From Antedon mediterranea (taxonomy: Eukaryota > Animalia > Echinodermata): a stretch of 64,000 bases of DNA. The stretch lies in contig NC_092674.1 of NCBI RefSeq assembly GCF_964355755.1, positions 21,204,001-21,268,000 of the forward strand, read 5' to 3'. The first letter of the stretch is position 1; every line of letters begins with the position of its first letter. The notes beneath the pieces were generated by a model. That model searched no databases, was not told the DNA's origin, and saw nothing but the letters and a program-made list of their open reading frames with translations. Below are positions 2,131 through 45,738 of the stretch, piece by piece. The position numbers and the translations under genes are program-made.

Positions 2131-2284
2131 GATTAGTCAAGATTTTTTTTTTTATTTGCTAGAAAGACCTCACTGTCGCAAGAAATGATCAATTCTGGTG
2201 TTATTGGTAGTGTCTGCGAAACCTGTTTAGCTCTGCCATTATTTTGGTTAATATATGATATGGTTACTAAATAGATTATTAAAA

Positions 2285-3607: not shown

Positions 3608-4489
3608 TGTGTAGTACTACCAATCAAACCAGCTATACCTCTTAACATTACTACTTTTTAACAGCAGAGAGTTCGTCTTAACAGTAATTATTGTGTGAAA
3701 CCATATGTGTTCTCATTGAGTGGGGAGTGGTCTATCATACGGTTTGCCTATTAATCTATTGCGTACCCTATTTTTTCACATGCCCACAATTCTATTTTGT
3801 TATAATGTGCTATGCCTATAAAACACAAACGAAACTGAAGGTACGCAAACAGGAATACTGCTATATGTAGCTTAAGTCAGAAAAGCTTTATAAAATAACA
3901 TTTCATTTCATTTCAAGCGAAATTAAGACGATAAAGCCGCCAAGCCTTTGTACTATCAGATGACTTACCAACCTTCTTGTACAGAAATCAAATCAGCAGC
4001 AAGCTTACTCATGAAAATGATGCCATAACAATCATTCGAGTTTATAAAAGTACCCCCAGTTCAGACTTGCCCCAAGTCTGTATATATTTCGAGGCTTTTC
4101 GGTGATTGTCTGAACCTGAAATCGGGCCTGAAATACATACTTGTAAGGACGCGTATAAAAATCGATTTGCAGACCGCAAACATCAGATAAGAATGACATA
4201 GATTAACATATACCATATTTGGCTAAATGAGGCGAGCCGCGAGTATTGATTTCGAATCAACCAATGATTAAACGGATGGTTTCAAAAAGAGTACTTTCGA
4301 TCAAGTCGAGTAAGACTTTTAAACTGAAACAAGAATTGTCGAAGTATATATTGTGAAAGGTATTATAAAAGTGGTTGTGTTGTTTGATACAATAACAAGT
4401 CAAGACCCACCCGCCTACGGTTGTACTCCTATGAACGAACCGGCAACTAAAACGTCAATCTAGACACTATTTATACATGCCACCGCCGG

Positions 4490-4555
4490 TGTAAGATTTA
4501 AATGTGTCCGGTGTTTGAAAGTGTCCACTGGACAATTTTCAGCATTGAATAGTGT
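4490..4555 (+). repeat. Left terminal inverted repeat of Ginger element
   Basis: TGTAAGATTTAAATGTGTCC...GAAAGTGTCCACTGGACAATTTTCAGCATTGAATAGTGT. Imperfect reverse complement of 37395-37461, with repeated GTGTCC/GGACA motifs. Confidence 0.9.
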
Positions 4556-4684
4556 AATACTAGCTGTTGAAAATGGCTGCAACCACCCGGGCAGCTTTCA
4601 TCGATAAAAAAGTAGGACCATCGACATCGACATCATATTAAACCTGTAAAAACTAGGGCACTGGACGTTCACCAACTCCCGTTA

Positions 4685-7600
4685 TAGACCGGGCGCCCGG
4701 AAGATTTATTCATGTGAAAAGATAAAAAAGGTTTGATGATGTAGTTAGGTGCGTATTAGGGCGAGATGCAATATTCGACATTGCTGCCGGGTCACAGCCT
4801 GTACATGGGGCCTGTGGGGATCATAACATAGGGGTGTAAAAATGCATTTATTCATGTGAAGCGATACAAGGATAAACTTTGTTGGATATCATTCGCAGTG
4901 GGCTACTAATGATTACATCACCAATGACAGCAACTTTATCCTGTACATAAGCTCAGACAGCAGCCCTAAAGGTCCGCAGTTTTCCCCCTATTCGGCTATA
5001 TACTCGGTGCGTATGTCGTCTTATGGCGTTCAGCTGAGTTAGAAATACGTGAAACGGACTCGGACTGACAATAAATACACAGTAGAATGCTAAAACAATA
5101 AATAAAGAGAGCAGTTGTTTCCTGTACCAAATCATCAAACATCACACTCTTAGGAACTTGCCCAAAATGGGTTTATCCATGAAGTATGAATCATTTTTGA
5201 AAAAAAAATTTTTTTTTTTCACTTTATCCGGTACACAGCAGCTCAAATGCCCGAGGCTCCATTCGATCAACAATGTCGATAATACAAACACATTCACGAT
5301 AACGAGTGACTTTTATTTTATAATTGAAATATATCTTTATTTTGGAATAATAAATAACACCAACAAAAACACTTAAAATAACCAACAGCAGATTTGTATT
5401 TTAGGGTAAAATTTTGAACAATCAATATTATATCAAAATCATTATTTCGATCAAAATAATATAATTTAAGAATATTTTTCAGATAAACTAAATAATTACA
5501 CTCATAATGATCGACACCGGTACCGATTTATTGTGCATTATTATTATAACTCGATTTAAATATTGTTTTAATTACACACTAGACACTAGTGATATGTCTA
5601 TGAAAAAGGGCAACGAAATCTAAATTTGCAACATTTTTTAACATAACATAATATAATAGTAAAGTAAATAATAGTTCGAATTCTACATAATCACTTAGAG
5701 AATTGGTAAGGTATAGATTAGACTATCGATTGCACACTATTACTGTATTTTTAACTCAATTAAATAAAAAAAAAGTAACCGTTTTCATGTGAATTAGACT
5801 GATAAAAACCAACAAAAAACTTAATCTGCCAACATTTTAAACATCGTTACTTGTCCATAATGGATCAACTACTGTATCGATTACTGCACATTGTTTTACT
5901 TTAACTGAACCAAAGAAAAATTTGTAATTGTTACTGTACTAACATTAGACAGTGATATCTGATAAAAGGCAATATTAATAATACTGACCAAATTAAATAT
6001 CGTTACTTATCCACAATGGATCGACTACTGTATTGATTATTGCACATTATTTTACTATAACTGCCCAAGTAAAATTTAAAATTGTTACTGTACTAACATT
6101 AGACAGTGATATCTGATAAAATGCAACATACTCTGGACCAAATTAAATATCGTTACTTATCCATAATGGATCGACTACTGTATTGATTACTGCACATTAT
6201 TTTACTATAATCAAATTTATAAATGACGCTGTCACAAATCATGTAAAAAGAAATCCAATAGCCCTTATTGGTTTTATTATATCGTGTATTCTGTTCAGCT
6301 AGTAATGGAATATGAGGAATGTACAATATTCAGTTATTTAATTCATACAGCCAGTAACCTGGATGTCTTTGCTCAATGCTTTTACAGTGTGTCGGTAGTT
6401 ACACTGAATGTAAAATATTCGACCTGGGTTCAGTTAGAGAAAAATAATGTGCAATAATCAATACAGTAGTCGATCCACTGTGGATAAGTAACGATATTTA
6501 ATTTGATCCAGTATTATTAATGTTGCCTTTTATCAGATATCACTGTATAATGTTAGTACAGTAACAATTTTAAATTTGACTTCGGCAGTTATAGTAAAAT
6601 AATGTGCAATAATCAATACAGTAGTCGATCCATTATGGATAAGTAACGATATTTAATTTGGTCCTGAGTATGTTGCCTTTTATCAGATATCACTGTCTAA
6701 TGTTAGTACAGTAACAATTTTAAATTTGACTTCGGCAGTTATAGTAAAATAATGTGCAATAATCAATACAGTAGTCGATCCATTGTGGATAAGTAACGAT
6801 ATTTAATTTGGTCCTGAGTATGTTGCATTTTATCAGATATCACTGTCTAATGTTAGCACAGTAACAATTTTAAATTTGACATGGGCAGTTATAGTAAAAT
6901 AATGTGCAATAATCAATACAGTGGTCGATCCATTGTGGATAAGTAACGATATTTAATTTGGTTCAGTATTATTAATATTAATTAATGTTGCCTTTTATCA
7001 GATATCACTGTCTAATGTTAGTACAGTAACAATTAAAAGTTTGACTTTGGTTCAGTTAAAGTAAAACAATGTGCAGTAATCGATACAGTAGTCGATCCAT
7101 TATGGACAAGTAACGATGTTTAAAATGTTGGCAAATTAAGTTTTTTGTTGGTTTTTATCAGTCTAATTAAAATGAAAACGGTTACTTGTTTTTATTTAAA
7201 TTGAGTTAAAAATACAATAAAAGTGTGCAATCGATAGTCTAATCTATACATTACCAATTCTCTAAGTGATTATGTTGAATTCGAACTATTATTTACTTTA
7301 CTATTATGTTATGTTAAAAAATGTTGCAAATTTAGATTTCGTTGCCTTTTTTCATATAGACATATCACTAGTGTCTAGTGTGTAATTAAAACAATATTTA
7401 AATCGAGTTATAATAACAATGAACAATAAATCGGTACCGGTGTCGATCATTATGAGTGTAATTATTTAGTTTATCTGAAAAATATTCTTAAATTATATTA
7501 TTTTGATCGAAATAATGATTTTGATATAATATTGATTGTTCAAAATTTTACCCTAAAATACAAATCTGCTGTTGGTTATTTTTTTAAGTGTTTTGTTGGT

Positions 7601-8619
7601 GTTATTTATTATTCCAAAATAAAGATATATTTCAATTATAAAATAAAAGTCACTCGTTATCGTGAACATTGTCGATCACGAATGGAGCCTCGGGCATTTG
7701 AGCTGCTGTGTACCGGATAAAGTGAAAAAAAAAATTTTTTTTTCAAAAATGATTCATACTTCATGGATAAACCCATTTTGGGCGAGTTCGTAAGAGTTTG
7801 ATGTTTGATGATTTGGTACAGAAAACAACTGCTCTCTTCAATTATAAAATAAAAGTCACTCGTTATCGTGAATGTGTTTGTATTATCGACATTGTTGATC
7901 GAATGGAGCCTCGGGCATTTGAGCTGCTGTGTACCGGATAAAGTGAAGAAAAAACCATTTTTTTCAAAAATGATTCATACTTCATGGATAAACCCATTTT
8001 GGGCAAGTTCCTAAGAGTTTGATGTTTGATGATTTGGTACAGGAAACAACTGCTCTCTTTATTTATTGTTTTAGCATTCTACTGTGTATTTATTGTCAGT
8101 CCGAGTCCGTATCACGTATTTCTAACTCAGCTGAACGCCATAAGACGACATACGCGCCGAGTATATAGCCGAATAAGGGAAAACTGCGGACCTTTAGGGC
8201 TGCTGTCTGAGCTTATGTACAGGATAAAGTTGCTGTCATTGGTGTTTTTGTCATCCCCAATATGTACTTCTGCCATTAAAAAAAGATTCAACCTTGTATC
8301 GCTTCACATGAATAAACCCATTTGGGCGTGGCCCTAAAATGTTGCTGTTTGGCGCCCCGTACAGGATAAAGTTGCTGTCATTGGTGATGTAATCATTAGT
8401 AGCCCACTGCGAATGATATCCAAAAAAGTTTATCCTTGTATCGCTTCAAATGAATAAATGCATTTTAACCCCCTATGTTATGATCCCCACAGGCCCCATG
8501 TACAGGCTGTGACCCGACAGCAATGTCGAATATTGCATCTCGACCTAACACGCACCTAACTACATCATCAAACCTTTTGTATCTTTTCACATGAATAAAT
8601 CTTCCTTGCGCCCGGTCTA
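4685..8619. mobile_element. Foldback (long palindromic) non-autonomous DNA transposon, TAG..CTA termini (Academ-like)
   Basis: TAGACCGGGCGC..GCGCCCGGTCTA. Arms over 1.5 kb are near-identical in inverted orientation. ~120 bp tandem units flank a ~220 bp loop (~6215-6440). Flanks TTA/TTT form an imperfect 3 bp TSD. Confidence 0.8.
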
Positions 8620-9609
8620 TTTAGGGTAATTATAATTCCTTAGAATACCAACTTGAATCGCAAAATATCAAGTCAATTGAAATAAATATTACTATTATTA
8701 TATCTGGAGACATATAGTCTAATCAAATTAAATTGTTTGTTTTTGATTGAGTATATACAACCTGTTGTCAATTTGAAGTAAATCGACAACTTGAAGAAAT
8801 ATATAGCCTACTGTATTATTATTTCGAGGGAATGAATATCACTAAATCATATAGGCCTAGGGCCTACCTATTTCGTTCTCTCGAAATATTATTTCATTCG
8901 AATTCGAATTACTACTTCGCGAGAGAACGAAATAATTTCCCTCGAAATTATTTCGTTCTAGTCGAGTCTCGAAGTAGTAATTCGTTTTTTATATTATTCA
9001 GTTCATTGAAATCTTATTTTGTTCTCCCTAAATATATTTGTTCCCTCAAAATATTTTTCAATTCTCAAAATATTATTTTGTAATATTCATAATACTGTTA
9101 CTAATTTAATAATATTAACTGATAACATAAGTTCTGTAAACAAGTAAGTTCGTCATTGTTAAAGTCAGTTCTTTTTCATTATATTTTTTTTCACAGATGC
9201 CTGATGTTTGTTTTTATTTAATAAAACATTGAATTGGTTAGTCACAATATTTTTTTTGTTTCTAGAGACTTTACATTATTTATCTATTTATCTTAAATAC
9301 ATTTGAAAAATATTGTTGATGCATATTACCAAAAAATATTTATTTTTTATATTTTATATGGCAAAATAAAACACCTAATTGCGCATCATAAATATTCGTT
9401 CACTCAATGGTATTTCGGTTTTTTTGTTTTTTTCGAATATTATTTCGTTTCCAATACAAACAGTCCAATACCGTTATACATCAAATTCATAGAATAATGG
9501 CTTATATTGAAATCAAGCGTTTAAAACGTCTTTGCCACAATAAAATGTCTGTACATGCAGCTGAGTTTAAAAAATCGCGGTTGTATTTTTGTTTAATATG
9601 GACATATAA

Positions 9610-10614
9610 ACATAGAAACCTCCAGCTAATACCAGAAATACCAACAGCTTATGTATCAATTTTTAAAATCAACACCAGCTAATTTAGAACGGTCAGCAGA
9701 TAATGTAGTAACGAAAATTGTCTCACAGCTAATGTTGAAAATATTGTATAATTTAAAAACCTGTCTACATCATGTGAAAATGCATTTCTTTACTTACCGC
9801 TAGCTATCCATCTATCCACGTCTCGTAAGTGACCAACCAACAACCACTTCTAGTAAGTAACCACCTCTATTGAACGACCACCGTCTTTGATAATCGACCA
9901 CCGTCTCTTAACGACCACACCACTCGAGGACGAGGTATTTTATTTTAAAGGACCACCACCTCGGCTTCTCATAATCAACCTCATGATGGACTACCTCTCT
10001 TAACGACCACGCCTAAAGTGTCGACCTCTCTAAAAAAAAATGTCCACCTCTCCAAGAGACCACTTCTCATAATCGACTACCATCCGTAACGACCACCTTT
10101 CGCAAATTACCACCTCTATTGAGGTGGTCACGTCTACGAGCGGTGGTAGTTTATGAAAAGCAGTCCCTTATGAGAGGAGGTTACCCCTTCAGGAAGTTGT
10201 CCATTGTGAGAAGCGGTCCCTTAACAGAGGTAGTCCCTTTTAAATATTAAAGGTGGTCGCTAACAAGGGTGGTTGCTTACGATCAGAGTGCTACGTTTTG
10301 AAAGCCGATCACTTACGAGAGGTGGATAGACTGACGGCTAAGTAGAGAAATACATTTGCACATGATTTAGACATTTAGGTTTGTAAAATATATAATATTT
10401 TATTAGCTGGTGATATTAACTACATTAGCTGTGAGGCAATTTTCGTTACTACGTTACCTGTTGAGTTGTACATTAGCTAATGTTTATTTAATAAATAACT
10501 GTTGGTGTTTCTACATTAGCTAGTTCTAGGTTTTACTACATGGGTGGATTTGACTTTGTTTCGACAACATTTGCTGGCGTTTTCTACACTAGCGGTTTTG
10601 AACAGGGACTACTG
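9610..10614. repeat. Diverged palindromic MITE-like repeat with GACCACCTCTC / CAGCTAATGTAG submotifs
   Basis: Left half is rich in ACGACCACCTCTC and right half in GAGAGGTGGTCG. Ends GGGACTACTG|TA. A related copy spans ~17311-26400, split by the LINE and Helitrons. Boundaries approximate. Confidence 0.55.
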
Positions 10615-10925: not shown

Positions 10926-13900
10926 TAGTTCATGGGCTGAAGGGGGTTACCGTGTACCCCCCCCCCCCCCCCACAGTTAAACTTCTTTGGTATCATTTTC
11001 TTCCCACGGACATATAGAGTGAAAAAATCGATGTTAAGAAGAAAAATATAGGGATGCATTGTATGTACTTGCGTCATTTGTAATGATAATCAGTGTTTTA
11101 TCTTCAAATATTTTTTGGGGTAGGGGGTAACATCTATCCTAATAACCCAAGAATCCAACATCTAATTAGTATTATCTTAGTAACATTGTGTAGCATACAT
11201 CTTTTAAAATCTTTTAAAATTTAAATAAGATTAATCGGAAGATTATTAAGGTCAGTAGAGGTCAAAAGGTCATTGACCTTTTACAAAAATGCACATTTTT
11301 GCCAAAATATAGATAAATTTCAACATAGTATCTACAATTTTCAATATTTTTTATCTTAATTGTGTTTTACTTGTGCTTACTGACATATTGAATAAGAAAA
11401 TATATGTTAACAAGATAAAAATTGCAGTTCATTATATACAAATTGTTATTTTTTATTGTTAAAAATTTCAATAAAAATACATTGTTTGGGGTAGGGTGTA
11501 ACATTAATAGCAATAACCCAAGAATCAAACATCTAATTAGTATGATCTTGGTGTCGTTGTGTAGCATTCGTGTTTTTTTAATCATATAGAATTTTAATAA
11601 AATTAATTGAACCATGTTTAAGGTCAGTAGAGGTAAAAAAGGTCACTGACCTTTTGCAAAATTGCAAGTATTTGCTATAATGAGATACATTTCAATATAA
11701 AATCTCCAATTTTTTCAATACTTTTTATTTTAATTGTGTTTTACTTGTGTTTACTGACATTGAATAACAAAATGTGTGTTAACATGAAAAAAATTGCAGT
11801 GCATTAATACCATTGTCATGTAATGTTATTATTCTTCAAAATTGCAATAAAAAGACATTTTTTGGGGTAGGGGGTAGCATTAATCCCAATAACCCAAGGA
11901 TCAAACATCTAATTAGTATGATCTTGGTATCGATGTGTAGCATATATTTTTTTAATCATGTAGAATTTAAATGAAATTAATCGAACGATACTAAGGTCAG
12001 TAGAGGTCATAAGGTCACTGACCTTTTGCGAAAATGTAATTTTTTGGCAAAATGAGATATATTTCAAAATCAGATCTCCAATTCTCGATATTTTTTTATT
12101 TGAATTGTCTTTTACTTGTGCTTACTAAAGCCTGGTTTCAATAAAATCGCTACACGACAGAGCGTAGCGATTCTATGGAAACGCTAGAATTTATCAGGGA
12201 TCTAGTACCCGAGCGCTAAATATTCTTTGGTAGGCGTATACGATTCATCGCCGACACAATCGGCAAAGTTGAACATGTTTGAACTTTGCCGATTTGACTG
12301 CGATGAATCGGGGAGCTTTCCCGATTGCGTCGGCGACATCTGCGCGTGTAGCGATTTTAATGGAAACGCTGTAGCGATTTTAATGGAAACCAGGCTTAAC
12401 ATATTGAATAAGAAAATGTGTGTTAAGATAAAAAATTGCAGTACATTGTATAAAAATTGTCAATTTTTAATTGCAATAAAAAGACATTTTTGGGGTAGCA
12501 GGTAACATTTATAAGAAGAAGAATAACCCAAGAATCAAACATCTAATTTGTATGATCTTGGTATCGTTGTGTAGCATTTTGTTTAATTTTATTTAAATTC
12601 TGCATAATTTTTATTTGAAATTCTACACAACGATACCAAGAACATACCAAATTAGATGTTTGATACTTGGGTTATTCTTATAAATGTTACCCGCTACCCC
12701 AAAAATGTCTTTTTATTGCAATTTTTAACAATTACAAAAATGACAATTTTTATACAATGTACTGACATTTTTTATCTTAACACACGTTTTCTTATTCAAT
12801 ATGTTAGTAAGCACAAGTAAAAGACAATTCAAATAAAAAAATATCGACAATTGGAGATCTGATATTGAAATATTTATATTTTTACCTCCATTGACCTTAA
12901 TAATCGTTCGATTAATTTCGTTTAAATTCTACATGATTACAAAAACATATATGCTACACATCGATACCAAGATCGTACTAATTAGATGTTTCATTCTTGG
13001 GTTATTGGTATTAATGCTACCCCCTACCCCAAAAATGTCTTTTTATTGCAATTTTGAAGAATAATAAAATTACATGACAATGGTATTAATGCACTGCAAT
13101 TTATTTCATGTTAACACACATTTTGTTATTCAATGTCAGTAAACACAAGTAAAACACAATTAAAATGAAAAGTATTGAAAAAATTTGAGATTTGATATTG
13201 AAATGTATCTCATTAGGCCTATGGCAAATATTTGCAATTTTGCAAAAGGTCAGTGACCTTTTTGACCTCTACTGACCTTAAACATAGTTCAATTAATTTT
13301 ATTAAAATTCTATATGGTTAAAAAACACGAATGCTACACAACGACACCAAGATCATACTAATTAGATGTTTGATTCTTGGGTTATTGCTATCAATGTTAC
13401 ACCCTACCCCAAAAAATGTATTTTTATTACAAATTTTAAGAATAAAAAATGATAATTTGTGTATAAATAATGAACTGCAATTTTAATCTTGTTAACATAT
13501 ATTTTCTTATTCAATATGTCAGTAAGCACAAGTAAAACACAATTACGATAAAACATATTGAAAATTATAGATACTATGTTGAAATTTATCTATGTTTTGG
13601 CAAAAATGTTTTGTAAAAGGTCAATGACCTTTTGACCTCTACTGACCCTACTAGTAGTCCGATTAATTTCATTTAAATTTTATAAGATTTTAAAAGATGT
13701 ATGCAACACAGTGGTACCAAGATAATACTAATTAGGTGTTGGATTCTTGTGTTATTGGGATAATTGTTACCCCCTACCCCAAAAATGTCTTTTTATTGTA
13801 ATTTTGAAGAATAACAAAATTAGATGACAATGGTATTAATGCAGTGCAATTTTTTTCATGTTAACACATATTTTGTTATTCAATATGTCAGTAAACACAA

Positions 13901-14689
13901 GTAAAACACAATTAAAATAAAAAATATTGAAAATTGGAGATTTGATATTGAAATGTATCTCATTATGGCAAATATTTGCAATTTTGCAAAAGGTCAGTGA
14001 CCTTTTGACCTCTACTGACCTTAGAAATGGTTCGATTAATTTTATTCAAATTTTATATGATTAAAAAACATGAATGCTACACAACGACACCAAGATCATA
14101 CTAATTAGATGTTTGATTCTTGGGTTATTGCTATTTTTGTTATCCCCTACCCCAAAAATGTATTTTTATTGCAATTTTTAACAATAAAAAATAAAAATTT
14201 GTATATAATGAACTGCAATTTTTATCTTGTTAACATATAATTTCTTATTCAATATGTCAGTATGTTAGTAAAACACAATTAAGATAAAAAATATTGAAAA
14301 TTGTAGATACGATATTGAAATTTATCTATATTTTGGGAAAAATTTGCATTTTTGACCTCTACTGACCTTAATAATCTTCCGATTAATTTTATTTAAATTT
14401 TAAAAGATTTTAAAAGATGTATGCTACACAATGTTACTAAGATAATACTAATTAGATGTTGGATTCTTGGGTTTATTAGGATAAATGTTACCCCCTACCC
14501 CAAAAAATATTTGAAGATAAAACATTGATGATCATTACAAATGACGCAAGTACATACAATGCATCCCTATATTTTTCTTGTTAACATCGATTTTTTCACT
14601 CTATATGTCCGTAGGAAGAAAATGATACCAAAGAAGTTTAACTGTGGGGGGGGGGGGGTGCACCGTAACTCCCTCCAGCCCATGGACTA
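10926..14689. mobile_element. Foldback non-autonomous DNA transposon, TAG..CTA termini, 3 bp TSD (Academ-like)
   Basis: TAT|TAGTTCATGGGCTG...CAGCCCATGGACTA|TAT. Whole element is palindromic about ~12600, built from ~370 bp units (about 4 left, 6 right). Confidence 0.85.
12129..12396. mobile_element. PIF/Harbinger-like MITE
   Basis: TAA|AGCCTGGTTTC...GAAACCAGGCT|TAA. Empty site (single TAA) is in the opposite arm of the host foldback near 12805. Confidence 0.85.
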
Positions 14690-15207
14690 TATGTTACGTA
14701 ATTTAATTCTCTTATTTTAGAAAATAACTAAATAAATTAGTACATGATTCTAGTATAAGTATTATAAAAAATGTTTCTATTTAATATACAGGGAGCGGAG
14801 GTTGCCTCATAGACTGAACGGTTTTCATACGAACTTATGTACTGTAATATTATTTTACGTAGATTACTTTTTAATATTATTTTATTTATTTAATAACATA
14901 TTTATACAGGATTATACACAATCAAGTAGAAATATACTTGTTTTGCATTGTGGTCCTGTCGACAAAAACGGATACAAATTTAAATACAATTTCAATTAAT
15001 ATTATAGTATAATTTGAGATGAACGTATGTAATAAAGAATATAACTATATGATTATATTTTATACTCCTATCTGAATGTGCTTTTTATTGTGTAATAGAA
15101 CGACCGAAGCGTTTACCTATAGAATAAGAGTCTCTTCGAAATTTAATTTAATAAATGGCATTTCCCTCCAATAGTTTTTTTCTCTCATTTTTTTGTGTAC
15201 TCGCCAC

Positions 15208-15680
15208 TGTAATAAATTACCATTCCCTAACCATGAACATTCTAGAATAAGATGTTTACATTTAAGACACCATGTATAATTAATATAATAACAATCAGGA
15301 ACATTCTAGTATGCTATTAATAGAAACTGTAATCCAATAGAATAAGAAGTATAAAGAATGATCTAGAAGGATAGGAACATCTTGATATAAAGGGATGTAA
15401 AACTATTGTCAGGTTGTTGGATATTAGAGGTTGGATATTAGATTGTAAAAGTTATTGTGAAGCTGTTGTTTAAAGTGCTTACTGGGTTGTTGAAAGTTGA
15501 AGTTGATTGAAATTAAAGCTTTGTTTTTAAGTTATTTGACAACTTTGTGGATTTGGTGTGTATACTTTTATGTCACAAGGGAGTTCCTAAAGTATTTTCA
15601 ACGGCTCGGAAACATACGTAAAAGGAGTTCGTGACATCCACTTAAGACACAAAGTTTAAATTATAGGCCTACACCTGACA
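15208..15680 (+). mobile_element. Possible solo LTR directly upstream of the transposase gene
   Basis: TGTAAT...CTGACA ends, internal TATAAA and an ATTAAA signal with LTR-like texture. No convincing TSD (CCAC vs AAAC). Confidence 0.3.
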
Positions 15681-15699
15681 AAACTGTTTGCTCTTCTCT

Positions 15700-15815
15700 T
15701 CTAATCGGCAATTGGTTAAAACAAATGTAGCAAGAAGCTGATTGGCTCAATGTTTGTTCAAAACCTCCTACATTTCAAAAATCGTTCACTTTGCTTACAA
15801 AGTTCCAATCACGGT
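15700..15815 (+). promoter_or_regulatory. Candidate transposase promoter with CCAAT boxes
   Basis: ATTGG at ~15711 and ~15741 and CCAATC at ~15805, 50-150 bp upstream of the ATG at 15863. Confidence 0.3.
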
Positions 15816-15862
15816 GTTGTTCGTTACAACCTGCCTTCTTTCTATTTTTACTTACTATCATT

Positions 15863-16110
15863 ATGGCCGATCATGAGTTTGATGCCTTGAGAAACTATCT
15901 ACAAAACAACGTTTATCCTGTAAATTATTCTGAAATATTAAAACGAAGTTTGCGACGGAAAGCCAAGAACTTTACAATTCTTCGTGATATCTTGTATTAC
16001 AAACAACATTCTGGTAGATTGTTGCGTGTATTGTTACCGAAAGAAAAAAACGAAGTGTTAAATAGTATCCATAAGCAGGCACATGGTGGTCACTTGGGTG
16101 TCAACAAAAC
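15863..16110 (+). CDS. Ginger transposase/integrase exon 1 (N-terminal YP..YY region plus the His part of the H2C2 zinc finger)
   Basis: MADHEFDALRNYLQNNVYP..LYYK..IHKQAHGGHLGVNK(T). Donor AC|GTAAGT, phase 2. Confidence 0.85.
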
Positions 16111-19100: not shown

Positions 19101-19174
19101 TTAAACAGCAGTATTATGCTGAAAAGCTTGAGGAAACAAAATTTAATTCAAAACAGACTTCTCAATAACATTAT

Positions 19175-26315: not shown

Positions 26316-28265
26316 TGAGGCAATTTTCGTTACGACGTTAGCTGTTGACCGTTCTACATTAGCTAATGTTAATTTGTATTTACTACACAAGCTGTTAGTA
26401 TTTGAATGCCAATCTGCTTAATTTTTGTATTTAATTGTAAAAAATTTTTGAGAATAGAATTTAAATTTATTTTATTAAATACTGTATTAATTTAATTGAT
26501 TAAAAAATTTAAATAAATTTTATCTTAAAACGTATTAGAATTATTATTATCATCATCATTATTTAGTATTATAATGTATTCATTCAAATTTATTCAGCAA
26601 TATATTTACATTGTTACATACACCATTGCATTATTTTCCTACAAGTTAAAAAGAAAAAAAAAACATTAGGCCTATATAATAAAACAAATAACACATATTA
26701 TTGTTATTACTAAACAGTCCCTCGTTTCTCTCGCGTACCCTAGGCTCTAGAAATTATTGTCAACGGGTTATTAGGGTGGTTCTCAAATATTATAGCCTCG
26801 ACGTACATAACTGGCAATAGTAAAAGTGAACGCAAGGCACTCCACACCTACACACAATATAGGCCTAAATGGACTGCATGAAACAAATGCAGAGTCTCTT
26901 AATTGACAAAAAACACAACATACATCGGAAAAATAAATATAACATAATTGCATTACAGTAACTAATCCACTTACCTACCAAAGTAAAGTTGGGTACAGAA
27001 AGAAATGGTACCAAAAGTCCATTTCAAAATACTATTTATTTATTTATATTAAAAAAAACAAATCTAATTTCTGTTAGTGTACTGGTTTTTGTTTGGAACT
27101 GATTTATTACGCCTGAGGGAATTGACACTTGGAAGAGAAATTCTTTCATTATACCCTATGCACGGTTGTACAAACGTATTTTAAATTCTTTATTAATAAA
27201 GTACATCAAAACAAATTTGATTATATTACTATCAAGAAAGGTAAGAGCCAAAACAAATAAATAAACAACAGTAGTTGTCAATTAAGTATGTCTCCTAAAT
27301 AAGGCGAAGTTAACATAATTGATAACAGCCAAAATAATATCAAAGTCATGGGGAAAGTGTCATTAAAATAATTGTTATTAAAATCAAAATGATTAGCTCA
27401 GTTTCTTACATTGCTACACAAATCATAACGTAAATCTGATTAAAATAAGCATTTTTATTTTTTTTTTAAATAAAGTTGGTTTGTCTTTAACATTATGATG
27501 CTGTACTCGAGCTTTTTAATGGGTTGTCAGCTATTAAAAACAATTATTGAAATTTTAAGAATATGTTACTAGATCATTCATATTTAACATATCTTTAAAG
27601 AAGAAAATATTGTTCTCTTAATAGTGGTTAAATCTACCATTTTGGTTTTTTAAAAAAATGGGGATTTTTATATCTACTCTTTCGCACATTCACCAAGCGT
27701 ACACAATAATTCTAGTAGGACAATTAATTATTTATACTTTTCAAGTGAGTTTGTTATTGCCTGAGTGAATTATTGAGGGCGTAGTTATTTTGTATGGGAG
27801 GCTGCCCTCAATTTTAAGTTTATATGTGGGTATTTAGAATGTAAACACGGTACAATCAGGGAGATGTAAATCTCCCTGGTACAATGTGACAACGGAATCA
27901 TCACGGACTGATGGACATTTTTCATAGAAGGTATCTTTTCCCTTTTCAATATTCATTTATCATTGTCAAATAAAAAAAACTAGAAACATAGATAAATATT
28001 AAAAGTTAATTAATCACTTGTGCCCAGTGCTTGCCTTAAACGAAAAGTTAAAATATATGGAACGCCAAACTGTAATGTTAGTATAATGCATTGATGAGAA
28101 TGGTGATGTGAACTGCGGTAATAAATAATAAATAATATTTAAAATCAAAACAAAATTAAATTATTTAAAGAATCCATAATACAGTTTTAAGGTCAATAGT
28201 AAATCTACAAAGAGATTGAATATCATCAATACAATAAACACATTTGTTTTGGTTTTTTTTAACAG

Positions 28266-28459
28266 TTGGAAAAAGATACGCGAAAGGTATTATTGGAAGG
28301 GGTCATTTGATGATGTTCGTAATTTTATAGCCGCCTGTGATCAGTGCCAACGGAAAGAAGTTTTAAAAAAAGTGCCACTTCAACCTATACCCGTAACAGA
28401 TACTGCTTTCAGACAGATCGGTATGGATATTGTTGGGCCTTTGATAAAGACAGAAAATG
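28266..28459 (+). CDS. Ginger transposase exon 2 (Cys pair of H2C2 plus first catalytic Asp)
   Basis: Acceptor TTTTTTTAACAG|. WKKIRERYYW..CDQCQ..IGMDIVGPL..EN. Donor G|GTAAGG. Phases 2 and 1 join exons 1 and 3 in frame. Confidence 0.88.
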
Positions 28460-29090
28460 GTAAGGTATCTCATAACAATTTACTGAAAAAACAACAATGC
28501 TGTGGCTGGATAAAAAAGTTAAATCAAAATGTAAAAGTAAAAAGCAAGAAGACATGAATGCAATACGTTCAGAAAACTCTGTAATTCATTCTTCAGGGCC
28601 TAAAATTACAGTTAATAATTAGTTCTGTTCGGCCTTTATTGTAATAGGGCTGAACTTAAATTTATTATTGTAAAGGCAGAAGCGCAATATTTGTGAGGTT
28701 TCTTGAAATTGTTAACTAAACTAAAATTATGTCAGTTCTATTTTTTACACTGTCAACAAAAACTAGATTTACCAAGAATCAGATGCTCTTATTATTGTGG
28801 CCGGATTTACATCGATTATGGCTATACAGTAATAATCTTTATTTCTGCCTGTTTTAATTTGATCCAAGCCATGACTGGGGTAATACTGTTTAGCGCATAG
28901 AGGTTTTACAACATTAGGCGCTATGTAAATCCACGATATTATTATTCTTCTTGTTCTTATTATTTTTATTGATATTAATATTGTTATTATTATTGTTATT
29001 TCATTCGTACAGTTTGGGTCTTGTACATCTCATCATGACATTTTGATACTATTATTACGGCTTATTATACTATTATTTGCTGTGTTTCAG

Positions 29091-30964
29091 GTAATCGATA
29101 CTTACTTGTATTTACCGAGTACCTTACCAAATGGGTGGAAGCTGATGCAATTCCAGATAAATCTGCTAAAACAGTGCTGAAATCTTTTATTGATTTTGTC
29201 TGCAGACATGGAACACCTTCTATATTGATTACAGACCAGGGTAGAGAGTTTTGTAATGAGCTGAATGACAGCTTCTGTAAGCGGATTGGGGTAGACCACA
29301 GAGTTGCCTCACCATACCATCCTCAAACAGGCGGGCAAATGGAGCGCTTTAACAGAACACTTTGCACAATGCTTATGACGTTTACCAACGCAGACCAAAA
29401 TGACTGGGATATACAACTCCCATACGTGTTGTTTGCCTACAGAACATCTGAGCACAAGTCTACGAAATGTGACCCATTCTCATTAGTTTACGGTAGAAAG
29501 GCTGTGTTGCCTGTAGAATTACGTATTCCCATCGTTTCGTCTAATAAAGATGACATATCCGGAACTGTTCCTTTAAAAATAAGAGTGGACGCTTTTTTGA
29601 AACTCAAAGATTCAAGGAGAAGGGCATCAGAAAATATCAAAAAAGCACAGAAAAAGCAAAAACATTATCATGATGCTGGTGTTAAAAGCAACACGTACTA
29701 TGCAGGAGATCAAGTGCTCTTGCAGAATTCCAGAAATTTGTCAAGAAAGGGAGGCAAAATTAATGCTCGATGGACTGGTCCATATATTATAGAAAAAGTC
29801 CTCACTCACAATACATATCGACTAAAAGGAAGAAAGGCTATTGTTAACGGAAACAAGATCAGACATTACAAGTCTGATAAAACAACCTCTTTGAACTGTC
29901 CATCATCAAGCACTAAACAGAAATGTAATACTGATGATAAGCATCTCCCTCCAAAGAAACGAAAGCGAACGCCAGACATCCCACCTGAAGTAACGCACCA
30001 TGATAACAGACCTACATCCAAGAATGGTGATATCACACCGGATGATCACATTATTAACATACCTACATCAAAGAATGTTGATGATAACGATAACAGACCT
30101 ACATCCAAGAATGATGATATCACACCGGATGATCACATTAACATACCTACATCCAAGAACGATGATATCACACTGGATAATCACGATAACATACCTACAT
30201 TAGACAATGATAATGTCGCACCGGATGATGACCATGACAACAGTAGGCCTGTATCTGATAGTGATGTGGTATACCTCAACACGAAAACTTCAAGAAAGTT
30301 ATTCTTTCCTGTCGATGCCAATTGGCAGCTTGAAAAGACAGCACCGTTTGGTATCAATGTCAAAAATTTTCACAAAACTCACTTAAAATGTGAAATGGAC
30401 AAGGCAGCCAGGCCTACTAAAGTTGTTAATATGAGAGGGGACGGCAACTGTCTTTTTAGGGCTTTGAGTTATATTCTCTTTGGTGTCCAGAACTACCATG
30501 TAGTTGTACGGGATTACATACTAAACTATATGTCCATGAACAAAAACCTATTTGAAAAAATTGAATCCAGATCATTTGAACGATACGTGGAAGACACGAG
30601 AATGGGGGAATATGGGACATGGGGTTCGGACATCGAAATCATGGCATTTGCGACCATGTCAAATACGAATGTTTATGTTTACAGTAAATATGGAAGAAGG
30701 AAAGGAGTTCCACATTACGAATGGTTGAAATATGCACCAATAAGTAATCAGTTTGGTGATTTAGTATCTGAAAGAAACATCTATCTATCAAACGTATGTG
30801 CACACTTTGAGCCTGTCCTGGATGTAGACAAGAGGGCTTATGATGCTGAATTAAAATACACTCGTACACCATACGCACCAATCAAAAACCACCTTGCACG
30901 GAAATACTGGGATATTGTATCCGATGTGACCCTCAATGCTGCTCTGGTAAATAATTTCTGTTAG
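29091..30964 (+). CDS. Ginger transposase exon 3 (rve integrase core D35E, GPY/F module, basic NLS, acidic repeats, OTU-like cysteine protease)
   Basis: Acceptor GTTTCAG|. ITDQG..35 aa..ER, WTGPY, PPKKRKR, OTU Cys box GDGNCLFRALS, WG..IEI.A, His box HFEPV. Spliced CDS is 2316 nt (771 aa) if it stops at 30964. Confidence 0.9.
29995..30245 (+). repeat. In-frame coding minisatellite (PTSKNDDITPDDH-like units)
   Basis: About 6 degenerate CCTACATCCAAGAA..GATATCACACCGGATGA units that keep the reading frame between the integrase and OTU domains. Confidence 0.85.
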
Positions 30965-30973
30965 TTCTTTTAA

Positions 30974-31578
30974 CACATTGACTGCCAAGGCATTTTCCGT
31001 AATTTCTGTCCCAGTGCCAAGTCCCGTTTACATATTAAATTACAGTTTGAAAGTGTAACATCTGGTCACAGACTATCATGATGTCATTCAAAATACGATG
31101 GCGGGAAAAACCGTTGAGACGTATAAATACGTCACTGGCAATGGTCCAACAATTTTATTGACTTTGCCAGGAACGTAAATATACGTCGGGGATTTTCCGC
31201 GCTAAAATCGGTCAAACCTATCATCGAGAGATAAAAACAGTAAACCACACTGAATCATTTCATCCTTTATTATTTTTATTTACTATTAGCGCAATTTATG
31301 ACATGTTTGAGATGATTATATTGAGTGTGAGGGCGCCATCGTATCAACCATATTCAATGCATGAGGGAATAAACACAAACAAACATACGACATTTATTTT
31401 TAGATTATCGTTTACGTACATCATTCATAAACTGCCATGCGATAATTCCTGTTCCAATCACCACTGCCAGCGATTCTACATACAATACAAAAGTGCTACG
31501 ATTTTGACGTAGTATTACGTCTTGGCAAGTAGCGACACGCAATTTTTGACGTATAAATACGCCGTGGCAGTGAACGTG
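30974..31578. mobile_element. piggyBac-like MITE
   Basis: TTAA|CACATTGACTGCCAAGGC...GCCGTGGCAGTGAACGTG|TTAA. Confidence 0.78.
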
Positions 31579-31844
31579 TTAAAACCAAATTACTTAATTA
31601 TCTCAATATTTATTTTTTAAATAATTTTGATATTGAAAATGTGTGTAGTTGGTCGCTTTCTTGTCGATGTTTTTATTGTAGAACGTAATTTATTTATTTT
31701 TCTCTGTTCTGGGTTGACCAACTAGCATAGGTGTTTAGCACCTGTTTGGTCTTTCCGTGCCTCCTTTTATAATTGTTTTGTCTTCTTTATTTATGTATAT
31801 GGCAGAAATTGAATAAATAAAAAAAAAAAAATAATAATAATTAC

Positions 31845-32726
31845 GAAGATAAAAATGTGGTATTTTTGGGGAAAAATGAAGTTTGAGGACGCTGTTCACA
31901 AAATAAAAATACATCTTTAAGTTGCCTGTATCTAATTAACTTTTAGCCATAATAATTTGAAAATGGTCTTATTTGATATATAATTAAATTTTCGTTAAAA
32001 CTTTATATTTAAACACACCTAATTCTAATAAATTCATGTGAAGTGCTTAAAATCAGCAAATATAACACATTTTAATATTGTAACAAATGCTAGTGATGTT
32101 AATAAATTACAAAGTTAGTGATCATAAATTGAATTATTTTACATTTCTATAAAATGTTGTTATTATAAAACATATACTGTAAATGTAAATTTTTCGAAAG
32201 ATTTCGCAAAAAAAATCCTTTTACGTCCAATAGATTTTGAGATTGCAGGAATGTGTATTACCTGTACAGGTCAAAGGTCAATAAGAACATTTTGGGTCAT
32301 TTTCGTGAAAAAGTTCTTATTAGACTGAATAGAAACATACACCTTCAGAATATTTTGAGCCCTATTTAAAGTTTGTCCAACTGTTAGTTACGGAGTTATA
32401 TGATATGTAGGTCAAAGGTCAAAAATGCCAAAAATCATACTTCCGGCCATTTTTGGACAAACTTTTCCATTAGAACGAATATTAATATGCATCTCCCAAG
32501 TAATTTGACACTAAAATTATTTCATTTAATCTGAGCGTTACAAAGATATGACCATTTTGTTTTCAATGGGTCAAAATTGAGGTCAGAGGTCAAAGATGAA
32601 TTTTAGAAATTTGACAACATGGGTTTTTACAACCAGCATGATTCAAATATTCATAAAACACAATGTTTACACTTTCCCCATGATCTGCACACGAAGGCAA
32701 TTTTTGTTACATAGGGATCTGGACTA
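31845..32726. mobile_element. Truncated Academ-like terminal fragment
   Basis: Ends GGATCTGGACTA (compare the GGACTA terminus at 14689) and carries AGGTCAAAGGTCA subterminal motifs. Left boundary uncertain. Confidence 0.4.
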
Positions 32727-33727
32727 AAGGGGTCTAATGGCAGATAACAACAGACCAAATATAATGTGTCCAGTGTAAACAGGCGATGATGTGTCATGCG
32801 CCCTGCTTTGATCGCTACAAGGATTAAAAAGCAGATTGTACAAAGAATAACGCGACTAAAGGTAAGGTAAAAGTACGTGAATTAGATTGTAAATAGTGTT
32901 TATTTTTATTGTATTTTTATGTTTAAAAAACTTGTTCATATTTACAACTCATATGATTCTGTTTCATAATGTTATGCAATTTTCTTCTATAATATGTTTT
33001 CTTTGGTCAAAGGAGCACATACAAACGTGCAACCTACCCTCTTTATGATCATTAACCTTGACGTGGTAGCGAGGCTTGCAGTGTATTGGTAGCCAGACCA
33101 ATGATGATCAATAACAAAGTAAAATAAATACAAACACACTTACTGAAACAAGTTTTAATAGCAAAAAATAAATAAATAAATAAATAAATATTTTTCTATA
33201 ATTATTTTTCATTATTATTACACTATTATTATTTTGTCCTGTTAATATAAGTAATGATCAATGATATATAATTTATGTTTACAAAACTCGTTCATATTTA
33301 CAACTCATTCTGACAAGACAACAACATATTTTTTGTAATTCACAATTCATACATTTATTTATTTTCAATCTGTCTGCATAACAAAAAATATATAGTATAA
33401 CAGATAGATTCCAGATACCGGATCGTTGTTTTTTTACATAACAAGTCATTTTTTCTTTGAATATAAATTCGGATTTAAGGACAAAATACTAAAATAAATA
33501 CTTACACCAAAGGTGCATAAAAACGTGTTGATGTGGCGCTATATCAATTTCATTATCTTTGCATTCACCCTAGACGCACATAGTGTGACACCCCCACCAT
33601 ATTCTCGATGTGACGATCAATGTGCCAATTAACATAATACTTCAGTAAAACGGATTATGTTCTTTCAAGAGATCAGCTATATCGTGTTGATTATAAAAAG
33701 GTGCAACTTTTAATTGATTGGGGATTA

Positions 33728-36700
33728 AACGGTCGCTAAATGGAAGTGTTTAAATTTAAGTGATCTTTAATTGGAAGAGAACCATTACAATAACTTGTTT
33801 TTTTATCACATGATTATAAACTATTTATTCTTCTTGTCTTTACTCGTACAAAATAATATAACGGTCGCTAATTAGAAGTGTCTTAAAGTAAAGTGATCTT
33901 TAATTGGAAGAGGACCAGTAAAATTACTTGTTTTTTTATCCCATGATTAAAAACTATTTATTCTTATTGTTTTTACTCAAACAAAATAATATAACGGTCG
34001 CTAATTGGAAGTGTTTAAACTAAAATGATCTATAATTGGAAGAGGACCCGTACAATTACTTGTTTTTTATCACATGATTATAAACTATTTATTCTTCTTG
34101 TCTTAACTATTTATTCTTCTTGTCTTTATTCATACCAAAAAATATAACGGTCGCTAATTAGAAGTGTCTTAAAGTTAAGTGATCTTAAATTTAAAGAGGA
34201 CCAGTACACTAATTACTTGTTTTTTATCACATGATTAAAAAATATTTATTATTCTTGTCTTTACTCATACAAAATAAAATAACGGTCGCTAATTGGATGT
34301 GTTTAAATTTAAGTGATCTTTAATTGGAAGAGGACTAGTACAATTACTTGTTTTATATCACATGATTATAAACTATTTGTTATTCTTGTCTTTACTCGTA
34401 TAAAATAATAAAACGGTCGCTAAATGGAAGTGTTTAAATTTAAGTGATCTTTAATTGGAAGAGGACTAGTACAATTACTTATTTTTTATCACATAATTAA
34501 AATCTATTTATTCTTCTTGTTTTTATTCATACAAAATAATAATAACGGTCTCTAAATGGAAGTGTCTTAAAGTAAAGTGACCTTTAATTGGAAGAGAACC
34601 AGTACAATTACTTGTGTTATATCACATGATTATAAACTATTTATGCTTCTTGTTTTTATTCATAAAAAATAATATAACGGTCGCTAATTGGAAGTGTCTT
34701 AAAGTAAAGTGATCTTTCATTGGAAGAGGACCAGTACAATTAATTGTTTTTTATCACATGATTAAAATCTATTTATTCTTTTTGTTTTTATTCATACAAA
34801 ATAATAATAACGGTCGCTAATTGGAATTGTTTAAATTTAAGTGATCTTTAATTGGAAGAGGACCAGTACAATAACTTGTTTTTTATCACATGATTATAAA
34901 CTATTTATTATTCTTGCCTTTCTTCATACAAAATAATATAACGGTCGCTAATTGGAAGTGTTTAAATTTAAGTGATCTTTAATTGAAAGAGGACCAGTAC
35001 AATTACTTGTTTTTTATCACATGATTAAAATCTATTTATTCTTCTTGTTTTTTATTCATACAAAATAATAATAACGGTCGCTAATTGGAAATTTTTAAAT
35101 TTAAGTGATCTTTAATTGGAAGAGGACCAGTACAATTACTTGTTTTTTATCACATGATTAAAATCTATTTATTCTTCTTGTCTTTATTCATACCAAATAA
35201 TATAACGGTCGCTAATTGGAAGTGTCTTAAAGTAAAGTGATCTTTCATTGGAAGAGGAGCAGTACAATTACTTGTTTTTTAAACTTCTTGTCTTTACTCA
35301 TACAAAATAATAAAATGGTCGGTAAGTGGAAGTGTCTTAAACTAAAGTGATCTATAATTGGAAGAGTACCAGTAAAATTACTTGTTTTTCATCACATGAT
35401 TAAAATCTATTTATTCTTCTTGTTTTTATTCATACAAAATAATAATAACGGTCGCTAATTGGAAGTGTATAAATTTAAGTGATCTTTAATTGGAAGAGAA
35501 CCAGTACAATAACTTGTTTTTTATCACATGATTATAAACTATTTATTATTCTTGTCTTTCTTTATACAAAATAATATAACGGTCGATCGCTAATTGGAAG
35601 TGTCTTAAATTAAAGTGATCTTTAATTGGAAGAGGACCAGTACAATTACTTGTTTTTTATCACATGATTAAAATCTATTTATTCTTTTTGTTTTTATTCA
35701 TACAAAATAATATTAACGGTCGCTAATTGGAAGTGTTTAAATTTAAGTGATCTTTAATTGGAAGAGGACCAGTACAATTAATTGTTTTTTATCACATGAT
35801 TAAAATCTATTTTTTCTTTTTGTTTTTATTCATACAAAATAATAATAACGGTCGCTAATTGGAATTGTTTAAATTTAAGTGATCTTTAATTGGAAGAGGA
35901 CCAGTACAATAACTTGTTTTTTATCACATGATTATAAACTATTTATTATTCTTGCCTTTCTTCATACAAAATAATATAACGGTCGCTAATTGGAAGTGTT
36001 TAAATTTAAGTGATCTTTAATTAGAAGAGGACCAGTACAATTACTTGTTTTTTATCACATGATTAAAATCTATTTATTCTTCTTGTTTTTTATTCATACA
36101 AAATAATAATAACGGTCGCTAATTGGAAATTTTTAAATTTAAGTGATCTTTAATTGGAAGAGGACCAGTACAATTACTTGTTTTTTATCACATGATTAAA
36201 ATCTATTTATTCTTCTTGTCTTTATTCATACCAAATAATATAACGGTCGCTAATTGGAAGTGTCTTAAAGTAAAGTGATCTTTCATTGGAAGAGGAGCAG
36301 TACAATTACTTGTTTTTTAAACTTCTTGTCTTTACTCATACAAAATAATAAAATGGTCGGTAAGTGGAAGTGTCTTAAACTAAAGTGATCTATAATTGGA
36401 AGAGTACCAGTACAATTACTTGTTTTTTATCACATGATTATAAACTATTTATTCCTCTTGTCTGTACTCATACAAAATAATAATAACGGTCGCTAATTGG
36501 GAGTGTCTTAAAGTAAAGTGATCTTTAATTGGAAGAGGACCAGTACAATAACTTGTTTTTTATCACATGATTATAAACTATTTATTATTCTTTCCTTTCT
36601 TCATACAAAATAATATAACGGTCGCTAATTGGAAGTGTCTTAAAGTAAAGTGATCTTTAATTGGAAGAGGACCAGTACAATTACTTGTTTTTTATCACAT

Positions 36701-37170
36701 GATTATAAACTATTTATTATTCTTTCCTTTCTTCATACAAAATAATATAACGGTCGCTAATTGGAAGTGTCTTAAAGTAAAGTGATCTTTAATTGGAAGA
36801 AGACCAGTACAATTACTTGTTTTTTATCACATGATTAAAATCTATTTATTCTTCTTGTTTTTTATTCATACAAAATAATAATAACGGTCGCTAATTGGAA
36901 GTGTTTAAATTTAAGTGATCTTTAATTGGAAGAGGACCAGTACAATTACTTGTTTTTTATCACATGATTATAAACTATTTATTATTCTTGTCTTTACTCA
37001 TACAAAATAATAAAAATGGTCGCTAATTGAAAGTGTTTAAACTAAAGTGTTCTTTAATTGGAAGAGGACCAGTATAATTACTTGTTTTTATTACATGATT
37101 ATTATTATATTATTATTTATTCTTCTTGTCTTTATTCATACCAAATAATACAATGGTCGCTATTTGGAGG
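33728..37170 (+). repeat. ~131 bp tandem satellite, ~26 copies, subterminal in the Ginger element
   Basis: Unit AACGGTCGCTAATTGGAAGTG..GTGATCTTTAATTGGAAGAGGACCAGTACAATTACTTG..ATCACATGAT..CATACAAAATAAT. A variant block recurs at offset 1038 bp (35251 / 36289). Confidence 0.95.
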
Positions 37171-37394
37171 TGTTTTAAGCCAAAAAATCTTTGAAAAATA
37201 AAAACTAGTTTGGCATTATTAACTTAATAGTCGTCGTTAAAAAAAGACAAGTGCATGCGCAATCACGATCAAAACCTGAATCTCAAATCTCAACCACGGA
37301 CGGTATTCAATCCAAGGGTCAGACATTATTAAACGCGCCGGACAGCATTAAATTGTTGGAAAACGCCCGCGAACCCGTTGAAACATGCAATTGG

Positions 37395-37461
37395 ACACTA
37401 TCCAATGTTGAAAAGTGTCCACCTGGACACTTTTGAATGATGGACACATTTCAATCTTACA
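37395..37461 (-). repeat. Right terminal inverted repeat of Ginger element
   Basis: Reverse complement TGTAAGATTGAAATGTGTCC..AAAGTGTCCAGGTGGACACTTTTCAACATTGGATAGTGT matches 4490-4555. Confidence 0.9.
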
Positions 37462-38935
37462 CCGGCATTAATTACCACGCAGGGCAGGATGGATCTGCCT
37501 GGGTGGGAATTAATGATAACAATACCCAGTTTTCCTTTTCTCCGTCAACTGTATACCAGACAGGCGTAAAAAACATTTCCATATCTAGCATTCACAAAAA
37601 CTCATCACATCATCATTTCGTAAAGAAACGACATGAAGTTTACACACAAGCGTGTATCAAAACGTAATATAGCGCATTCGCATCATCTTAGTTGTTCAAT
37701 TTTTGAAATTTCCAAAAATGCATATTCAAAAATCAACAAAAATATACAATATTACAGATCTCCCAACTTGTGAGATTTTCTGAACACTATAGAGGGCGCA
37801 ATAATATTTTAAAATACATCAAACCATAGAGGGCAATATTAAAAAATGGTAACGATATTGGCATCTAACAGTAAACATGATATGTCAGGCGTGCCAAAAG
37901 CGGAAATGTGATGCAACTCAGTTCGCTCATTACAGTATTAGGACGCACGAATTCATTTATAACATTTTACGGACCGATGATAGTACAGTATCCTACTCTC
38001 TTGTTTCTATCTATAGATAGAACAAATTTCAAACCGCCAATCAATTAATCAATTCATTTAAAACGATATGATGAGGAAATCAAGATGAGGAAGTCTGTGA
38101 GAAGGAGAAAAACCTAGATTTGAACCCGGAACCTTCTGCTTGATATGTCCTAACCATTTAGACAACTGGGGCTTTCATAGTATTGTTAAAACCCGATTGG
38201 ATAGCGACTCTTTAACATTCTCGGCGTGGTACGACGGCGGAACATCACTAGCCCCTTCGTTGTACGCACGCGCACCACAGAGATCAAATTGATACGCCCT
38301 CATCTTTTAGTATTTTTATTCACGAAGTGGGATATATTTCATCCAAAATATCGGGAGAAATTGCATGGTGGCAGGTGTGAGGACGTGACACGAAGTATAT
38401 TGAGACTCCCACTTTAACATGGTTGTAATTAGATATAACCCAGAACTTATTGACTTCCATCAATGGAGTTTCGTTTAAACAAGAAGATATTTCTTACAAA
38501 AAACGCCGCTCGACATTTTAAAATTAATCATTGTTCTTTTGATTAATTTATGATTATTTAGTAAAAAGATGTCCTTTAATCGCAAAGATACATACAAATC
38601 ACAGATAGTTCTTTAATTATGAATCACATGCCCAATTTTTCACTAGTTAATTGTATACACAGAATTTGAAAGAAGACATGTGTACCTTTCCAAAAATGTA
38701 TTATTTGCCAACAAATATCAATCTACTAATTCAAAAATGGCATTTAAAAATGGTCAATTTTGAACTTTATTGTGCTGTAGCCTGTTTGTGTGTGAGCTCA
38801 ACCTGAACTGTACGCATGCAACTGAATACCCTCTGAGAGACAACGTGACTTCACAGCGGTACAAGTGAAAATTCTTGATCAAAAAATCTGTTGATTCGCG
38901 TCAACCAATCAAAGAGCAAGAATCCAAAATCGTTC

Positions 38936-44140: not shown

Positions 44141-44173
<33 letters not shown>

Positions 44174-45675: not shown

Positions 45676-45738
<63 letters not shown>

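Follow-up and report, generated by a model that had tools for sequence, protein, structure and literature searches.

Can a DNA transposon of the Ginger1 group reach 33 kb, and does it move at that size? The question is raised by a locus of the crinoid Antedon mediterranea (contig NC_092674.1, positions 21,204,001 to 21,268,000 of the forward strand). The window analysed is this whole stretch of 64,000 nucleotides, and positions are counted from its first letter. The element spans 4490-37461 (32,972 bp), begins with TGTAA, finishes with TTACA and lies between two CCGG tetranucleotides (4486-4489 and 37462-37465). The two ends are inverted repeats of each other (83% identity over 72 bp, E 1e-15, BLAST). 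The left terminal inverted repeat (TIR; 4490-4560, plus strand) is well matched over about 70 bp, with a weak match extending to about 110 bp, and the right TIR (37389-37461, minus strand) is its inverted match. A TGTCC motif is found at offsets 14 and 31 in both ends, with different spacers between. In a self-BLAST of the window, the left flank (3607-4489) aligns with 52991-53886 and the right flank (37462-38192) with 53883-54568. Both alignments meet on a single CCGG (53883-53886) within the duplicated segment 50120-54568; the empty site is therefore real, and the CCGG on either side of the element is its target-site duplication (TSD). The original prediction, made from the letters of the window, had placed TGT..ACA ends 32,972 bp apart between CCGG repeats, an uninterrupted empty site at 53883 and, between the ends, a single insertion unit; the ends and the empty site are as it described, and the meeting of both flanks on one empty CCGG bears out the single insertion.

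The paralogous segments are 3.6-4.5% substitutions apart over four aligned blocks. The TIRs, at 17%, differ far more than the flanks do, so their imperfection likely predates the insertion. The window was scanned for TGTNR..YNACA pairs bordered by a 4-bp duplication whose ends match at 21 or more of 30 bases. Six pairs were found, five of them within the arms of long foldback repeats; only 4490-37461 is free-standing. Rfam gave no match in 4400-37600. The duplicated segment, about 5 kb, comprises 2-4489 plus 37462-38192 in one copy and 50120-54568 in the other, each with its own inserts. It contains a decayed frame (52372-52848, minus strand; broken at 1709-2136) that has no Pfam match and is possibly an old mobile element. 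A 634-bp TTAA-bounded element is present as inverted copies, 99% alike, at 41593-42226 and 50895-51528, and the second copy splits the duplicated segment.

The element carries one transposase gene, on the plus strand, with three predicted exons. Exon 1 (15863-16110) contains the ATG, a YPYY-type region and the first half of the H2C2 zinc finger, and all 83 of its residues are the same as in the A. mediterranea RefSeq protein P0001. Exon 2 (28266-28459) provides the second half of H2C2 and the first catalytic aspartate, D137, and has a 2-codon in-frame deletion. D196, E232, GPY and OTU are located in exon 3 (29091-30964). The predicted introns, 16111-28265 (12,155 nt in this copy) and 28460-29090 (631 nt), are both GT-AG, and the exon structure agrees with P0001. 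The predicted spliced open reading frame (ORF) has 771 residues, without an internal stop up to the point where it breaks. The zinc finger is formed by H70, H77, C107 and C110, the catalytic triad is D137-D196-E232 with 35 residues between D and E, and GPY is at 377. Pfam matches above cut-off are Integrase_H2C2 (PF17921), rve (PF00665) and OTU (PF02338, E 9e-11). In the 45 residues before H2C2, YP is at 18-19, followed by F37 and Y45/Y46; judged by eye only, these fit the YPYY description of Bao, Kapitonov and Jurka 2010 (PMC2836005). Folding the catalytic region from its single sequence gave an uninformative model (predicted local distance difference test score, pLDDT, 35).

The best database match of the transposase is an A. 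mediterranea RefSeq protein of 863 aa. Its cluster contains five full-length proteins (XP_071943839.1, XP_071940918.1, XP_071943805.1, XP_071954160.1 and XP_071959562.1) on four chromosome-sized contigs of this species. They are mutually 98.5-99.9% alike and 97.4-97.8% identical to this copy over 769 residues, and the exon junctions fit. Since five near-identical full-length proteins are found on four chromosomes, the family is young and multi-copy. Unlike its relatives, this copy is without the last 94 and two internal residues, and its intron 1 is 9.5 kb longer than in the common form of the public runs described below. An identical 218-aa protein (P0121), half of OTU plus the tail, is found on seven A. 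mediterranea contigs; these are likely partial or non-autonomous copies. P0121 and P0124 end in a different set of 30 residues, a hint of an additional exon or splice variant.

A tree of the integrase core was built from 84 rows, the window and 83 database proteins picked by rank and Pfam label (24 with OTU, 2 with Ulp1, 18 with neither, 38 with reverse transcriptase (RT) or RNase H, and 1 with RT and OTU), a set in which named Ginger1 reference sequences are absent; the length filter removed none. The window falls in a 42-row side (support 100/100) that contains all 24 OTU and both Ulp1 rows. The original prediction had named grouping of the integrase with RT-bearing Gypsy pol as one outcome that would refute it, and none of the 39 RT-bearing rows is on the window's side. 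The highest identity of the window core to any RT-bearing core is 41%. The labelled GIN1 protein P0163 of Branchiostoma lanceolatum contains RT, RNase H, OTU (631-735) and then integrase, and groups with the RT-bearing rows; it is either a Gypsy pol with an internal OTU or a fused gene model, and is relevant to how Ginger1 acquired OTU.

Published Ginger1 elements have TGTNR ends, TIRs of 40-270 bp, a CCGG TSD (75%; also CCGT/ACGG), YPYY, H2C2, DDE and GPY motifs, an OTU or Ulp1 domain and 0-4 introns (PMC2836005). The element has the TGTNR ends with TIRs in this length range, the 4-bp CCGG TSD, H2C2/DDE/GPY, OTU, predicted GT-AG introns, and an integrase without RT or RNase H that stands apart from Gypsy pol in the tree. 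We accordingly class it, on sequence features, as a new member of a known family, the Ginger1 DNA transposons, as had been proposed from its ends, TSD, domains and introns; the tree placement agrees. It is most like the OTU-bearing Ginger1-1/2/3/11_HM of Hydra and Ginger1-1_AC of Aplysia, which share its ends, CCGG TSD, H2C2, DDE, GPY and OTU and have 1-4 GT-AG introns, an enzyme of 500-800 aa and TIRs of 40-270 bp; unlike these, the Antedon family enzyme has 863 aa with a conserved tail after OTU, the tail that this copy has lost, and the crinoid host is not among the four species treated in that paper (PMC2836005). A Ginger2/TDD element was rejected, as the CCGG target and GPY are present here versus an RTATAY target without GPY/F or YPYY. 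Eighty loci from a metagenome scan, mostly 30-37% Gypsy-like or short, contained no TGT..ACA pair with a 4-bp duplication. In the parts of the literature searched, no crinoid Ginger1 and none longer than 7.1 kb was found, although Repbase or supplements may hold longer or echinoderm entries. Repbase held 23 autonomous Ginger1 elements in 2022 (PMC10045372), and one oyster satellite resembles Ginger1 (PMC8268682).

Nested repeats total 21,847 of the 32,972 bp, or 66% with approximate ends, matching the two thirds first estimated, and this copy minus every recognised insert is 11.1 kb. Every large insert falls outside the three exons. Upstream of the gene, the foldback element FB1 (4685-8619) has TAG..CTA ends, 150-bp internal tandem repeats, flanks TTA/TTT and arms 3.0-3.5% apart; we take it to be Academ-like from its end motif only. 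It is followed by a miniature inverted-repeat transposable element (MITE)-like element, X2 (9600-10545, approximate ends), which is about 70% like element X1 of intron 1, and by the foldback element FB2 (10926-14689), with TAG..CTA ends, a 3-bp TSD TAT, 370-bp internal tandem repeats and arms 7.8% apart. The MITE-like element X1 (17320-26420, approximate ends) is host to a long interspersed nuclear element (LINE) and two Helitron-like elements. The decayed LINE (17833-21842, plus strand) has endonuclease and RT, a 7-bp TSD and 4 in-frame stops, and within it are two inserts like short interspersed nuclear elements (SINEs; 19168-19510 and 19922-20247). The two tandem non-autonomous Helitron-like elements (22586-26317, minus strand) have TC..CTAG ends and are of the same family as a flank element at 2284-3607. 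The LINE is presumably of the L2/CR1 group; this label and that of the Helitron-like pair come from end rules and not from library matches. Directly past the gene break is a MITE (30974-31578) flanked by a TTAA duplication, which we presume to be piggyBac-like on the TTAA rule. A 132-bp tandem array (33728-37178; its length corresponds to about 26 units, and monomers differ by 9% on average) stops 283 bp from the right end. The array is located directly inside the right subterminal region, where no carrier-element ends were found, and contains a higher-order duplication, recent and about 1.04 kb long (34699 versus 35737, 98%).

The form in which the family is common was deduced from public runs. 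Five contain the coding region, and contigs of three (two samples, two studies) were placed on 14750-33700; contigs lose rare variants, and depth was not taken as copy number. Depth over the exons and adjoining intron is about 250-580 in run X1, 880-950 in run X4 and 26-104 in run X5. In all three runs contigs join 17832 to 21843, omitting the 4.0-kb LINE exactly at its 7-bp duplication, and the depth at this joint (534, 898 and 63) is similar to that of the exons (508-577, 879-953 and 49-104). One contig of run X5 continues from 21843 to 22059 and then, through 128 other letters, to 27652, omitting a further 5.6 kb; record 6 of run X1 likewise starts at 27652. As family-depth contigs skip the LINE and one also skips to 27652, the predicted common intron 1 is about 2.7 kb versus 12.2 kb here, some 9,474 bp shorter. 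Run X5 was considered as RNA and this was rejected; its contigs run through both introns and it behaves as DNA.

About 0.75 kb of element X1, a MITE remnant (17.3-17.83 kb and 21843-22059), is present in the common form, so that the family has carried some nested DNA along. The right part of element X1 and 1.2 kb of intron, both kept in this copy, are missing from the common form. The stretch 26298-27510 is found at low depth (11 and 46) with 99% identity, and its arrangement is therefore present in sample S1 as a rare form. Depth at 33078-33700 is near the family level (376, 1076 and 220), which weakly suggests that the 3' region ahead of the 132-bp array is core. The family-depth pieces (6,733 bp in several contigs), the missing 95 codons and both TIRs give a common form of at least about 7.2 kb. 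Published Ginger1 elements measure 2,649-7,091 bp (PMC2836005), a descriptive range of 2.6-7 kb that both this copy, with 32,972 bp, and the common form exceed; the family's moving form is probably longer than those published. The original prediction of a giant 33-kb transposon thus holds for the single insertion and is not supported for the mobile family, whose common form is without at least 9.5 kb of intron 1. Its claim of an unusually large member survives in the weaker version that the size of the common form and the one shared MITE remnant allow.

The gene of this copy is also truncated. Family contigs match up to 30956 and then run on with 164 and 883 letters that are unmatched here; in exon 3 the family match stops at the same point and a stop codon follows. 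Compared with all five full-length relatives, the copy is 3'-truncated by 94 codons, a loss that the original prediction does not mention, and the 771-residue ORF was rejected as a complete gene, the 863-aa relatives having 94 further residues. When the missing residues were sought in all six frames of the window, the best score was 45 versus 75-128 for true homologs, and a displaced fourth exon was rejected on this score. About 50-60 of the 94 are conserved in 8 of 13 homologs tested, mollusc relatives included. T231M adjoins the catalytic glutamate, and all 20 relatives compared have T in that column; L371I is at a column with L in 19 of 20, and two residues are deleted after the zinc finger. 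With the C-terminal 94 residues lost and a change beside the catalytic glutamate, the copy is likely dead or defective. As both ends are intact, it might still be mobilised in trans.

We consider it probable that the locus holds a single Ginger1 copy at a CCGG site, likely defective and likely 33 kb in part because of elements absent from its common relatives; in its present 33-kb form it has likely never transposed. Integrase-type DDE enzymes bind the TIRs and join the 3' CA ends to the target with a 4-bp stagger, and such a stagger at CCGG would leave CCGG on both sides of the element. The first step would be duplication of the ~5-kb segment. A donor of ~11-20 kb (core, MITE remnant, perhaps FB2 and satellite) would then have entered one segment copy soon after the duplication; the copy-to-family distance is ~1.5-2.3% versus 3.6-4.5% between the flanks of the two segment copies. 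The LINE, two SINEs, two Helitrons and TTAA MITE would have been gained later, in this copy or its sub-lineage, and 3' loss and gene decay would have come last. Introns and untranslated regions would tolerate such cargo because splicing restores the reading frame.

Several observations weigh against this history. The common form could still reach ~23 kb, as FB1, X2, FB2 and the satellite amount to 12 kb and contigs were placed only on 14750-33700. FB2 arms are further apart (7.8%) than the flank paralogs (3.6-4.5%), a hint that the donor already carried FB2, although foldback arms may be mismatched from the outset. Of the 5.6-kb difference, about 1.9 kb is a deletion in the common form and not a gain here, and the second joint (22059>27652) is on one contig. 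At ~2%, the LINE has diverged from its own family as much as this copy has from the rest of the Ginger1 family, and its entry could thus predate the last jump. Because rare variants are lost from contigs, long copies that form a minority would go unseen. For the defect itself, the DDE triad and OTU motifs are intact.

A mobile unit of 15-23 kb, which would be two- to threefold the length of the longest Ginger1 published, with foldbacks, MITEs and the 132-bp satellite hitchhiking in introns and subterminal regions, is possible, and we propose it tentatively, as something we would doubt sooner than assert. Were it true, an integrase-type cut-and-paste enzyme would be transporting other repeats within the genome. 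Should other copies share the foldbacks and satellite, the size range of Ginger1 would widen two- to threefold and the family would act as a vehicle for satellite spread; should they lack them, the locus holds an ordinary copy in decay within a repeat-rich region.

A giant sub-lineage, in which almost the whole 33 kb, with the LINE and Helitrons, had come together in the donor and was moved as one piece by transposase from intact relatives, would account for the intact TIRs and TSD and for the older look of the FB2 arms, and the part of element X1 common to the family indicates that cargo can ride. The low-depth contig of sample S1, 99% identical over 26298-27510, is also in keeping with it, although that contig does not give the number of places. 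We regard this reading as unlikely. Family-depth contigs omit the LINE in all three runs, depth over the copy-specific stretch is 11 and 46 versus 250-580 and 880-950 for the family, and no second long copy was seen in the contigs examined.

It is very improbable that the two ends come from different elements or that the region is misassembled. The TIRs are 17% different, and since CCGG is the target that the family prefers, ends with no relation to each other would often be flanked by it; family similarity breaks at 30956, and the assembly was judged here without long reads. Yet the two flanks are continuous with a single paralogous sequence and join precisely at the empty CCGG, and between the ends there is one gene in one orientation, with nested inserts that have clean TSDs. 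A recombinant of two copies at the 30956 break is possible, but the flanks would stay unchanged.

Domestication of the transposase gene in place, with a long intron like that of a host gene, has still less to commend it. The domesticated GIN1, GIN2 and Imagin are likewise intron-bearing integrase-like genes; they are single-copy, and Imagin is without the catalytic E and inverted repeats (PMC2836005, PMC12863088). The element here, unlike these, keeps DDE, TIRs and TSD and belongs to a multi-copy family. All large inserts avoid the three exons, as domestication would have it, and exon 3 has ~13 residue changes per ~28 base changes versus the family, fewer than neutral (rough ratio of nonsynonymous to synonymous change, dN/dS, 0.23-0.36). 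This ratio pools both branches and combines a contig from one run with proteins from a different source; it therefore reflects selection on the family, not on this copy, and is expected from an active lineage. The loss of a tail conserved in mollusc relatives and the change of an invariant residue also speak against domestication.

Debris of a Gypsy long terminal repeat retrotransposon, despite a core whose median identity to Gypsy integrases is 37% and an RT domain within the interval, is a negligible and effectively refuted reading, as the ORF begins with ATG just before the YPYY-type region and has two predicted spliceosomal introns and a C-terminal OTU, the ends are inverted and no long direct repeat pair bounds the ORF, the RT belongs to the LINE with its own TSD, and the tree parts the transposase from all 39 RT-bearing rows.

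Ginger1 is intermediate between DNA transposons and Gypsy retroelements. According to PMC2836005 its excision is not understood, and OTU is proposed there, as an untested idea, to act on ubiquitin signalling. Five nearly identical full-length genes and defined ends and target make this young family material for the study of both, and the locus offers a dated series of nested insertions with the empty site beside it. The element is like the giant transposable elements Burro, Terminons, Polintons and Teratorn in measuring more than 20 kb end to end; the giants of PMC6431247 are defined there by more than 20 kb of internal coding capacity, whereas the element here has 2.3 kb of coding sequence and consists mostly of nested repeats, a large part of which is copy-specific.

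Other features of the window lie to the right of the element. At 38936-40414, nearly perfect inverted arms of 413 bp with a 140-bp internal tandem are flanked by a repeated 6-bp word and look recent. A 328-aa frame at 45899-46885 (minus strand) matches Sulfotransfer_2 (E 1e-48) and is likely a host carbohydrate sulfotransferase gene. Just 3' of this frame is a 765-bp tandem duplication (43978-45717; ~2.3 copies, 97-98%) with (ATG)n tracts. At 57978-60180, inverted arms of a GC-rich 15-17-bp minisatellite surround a 22-bp array, likely another foldback element.

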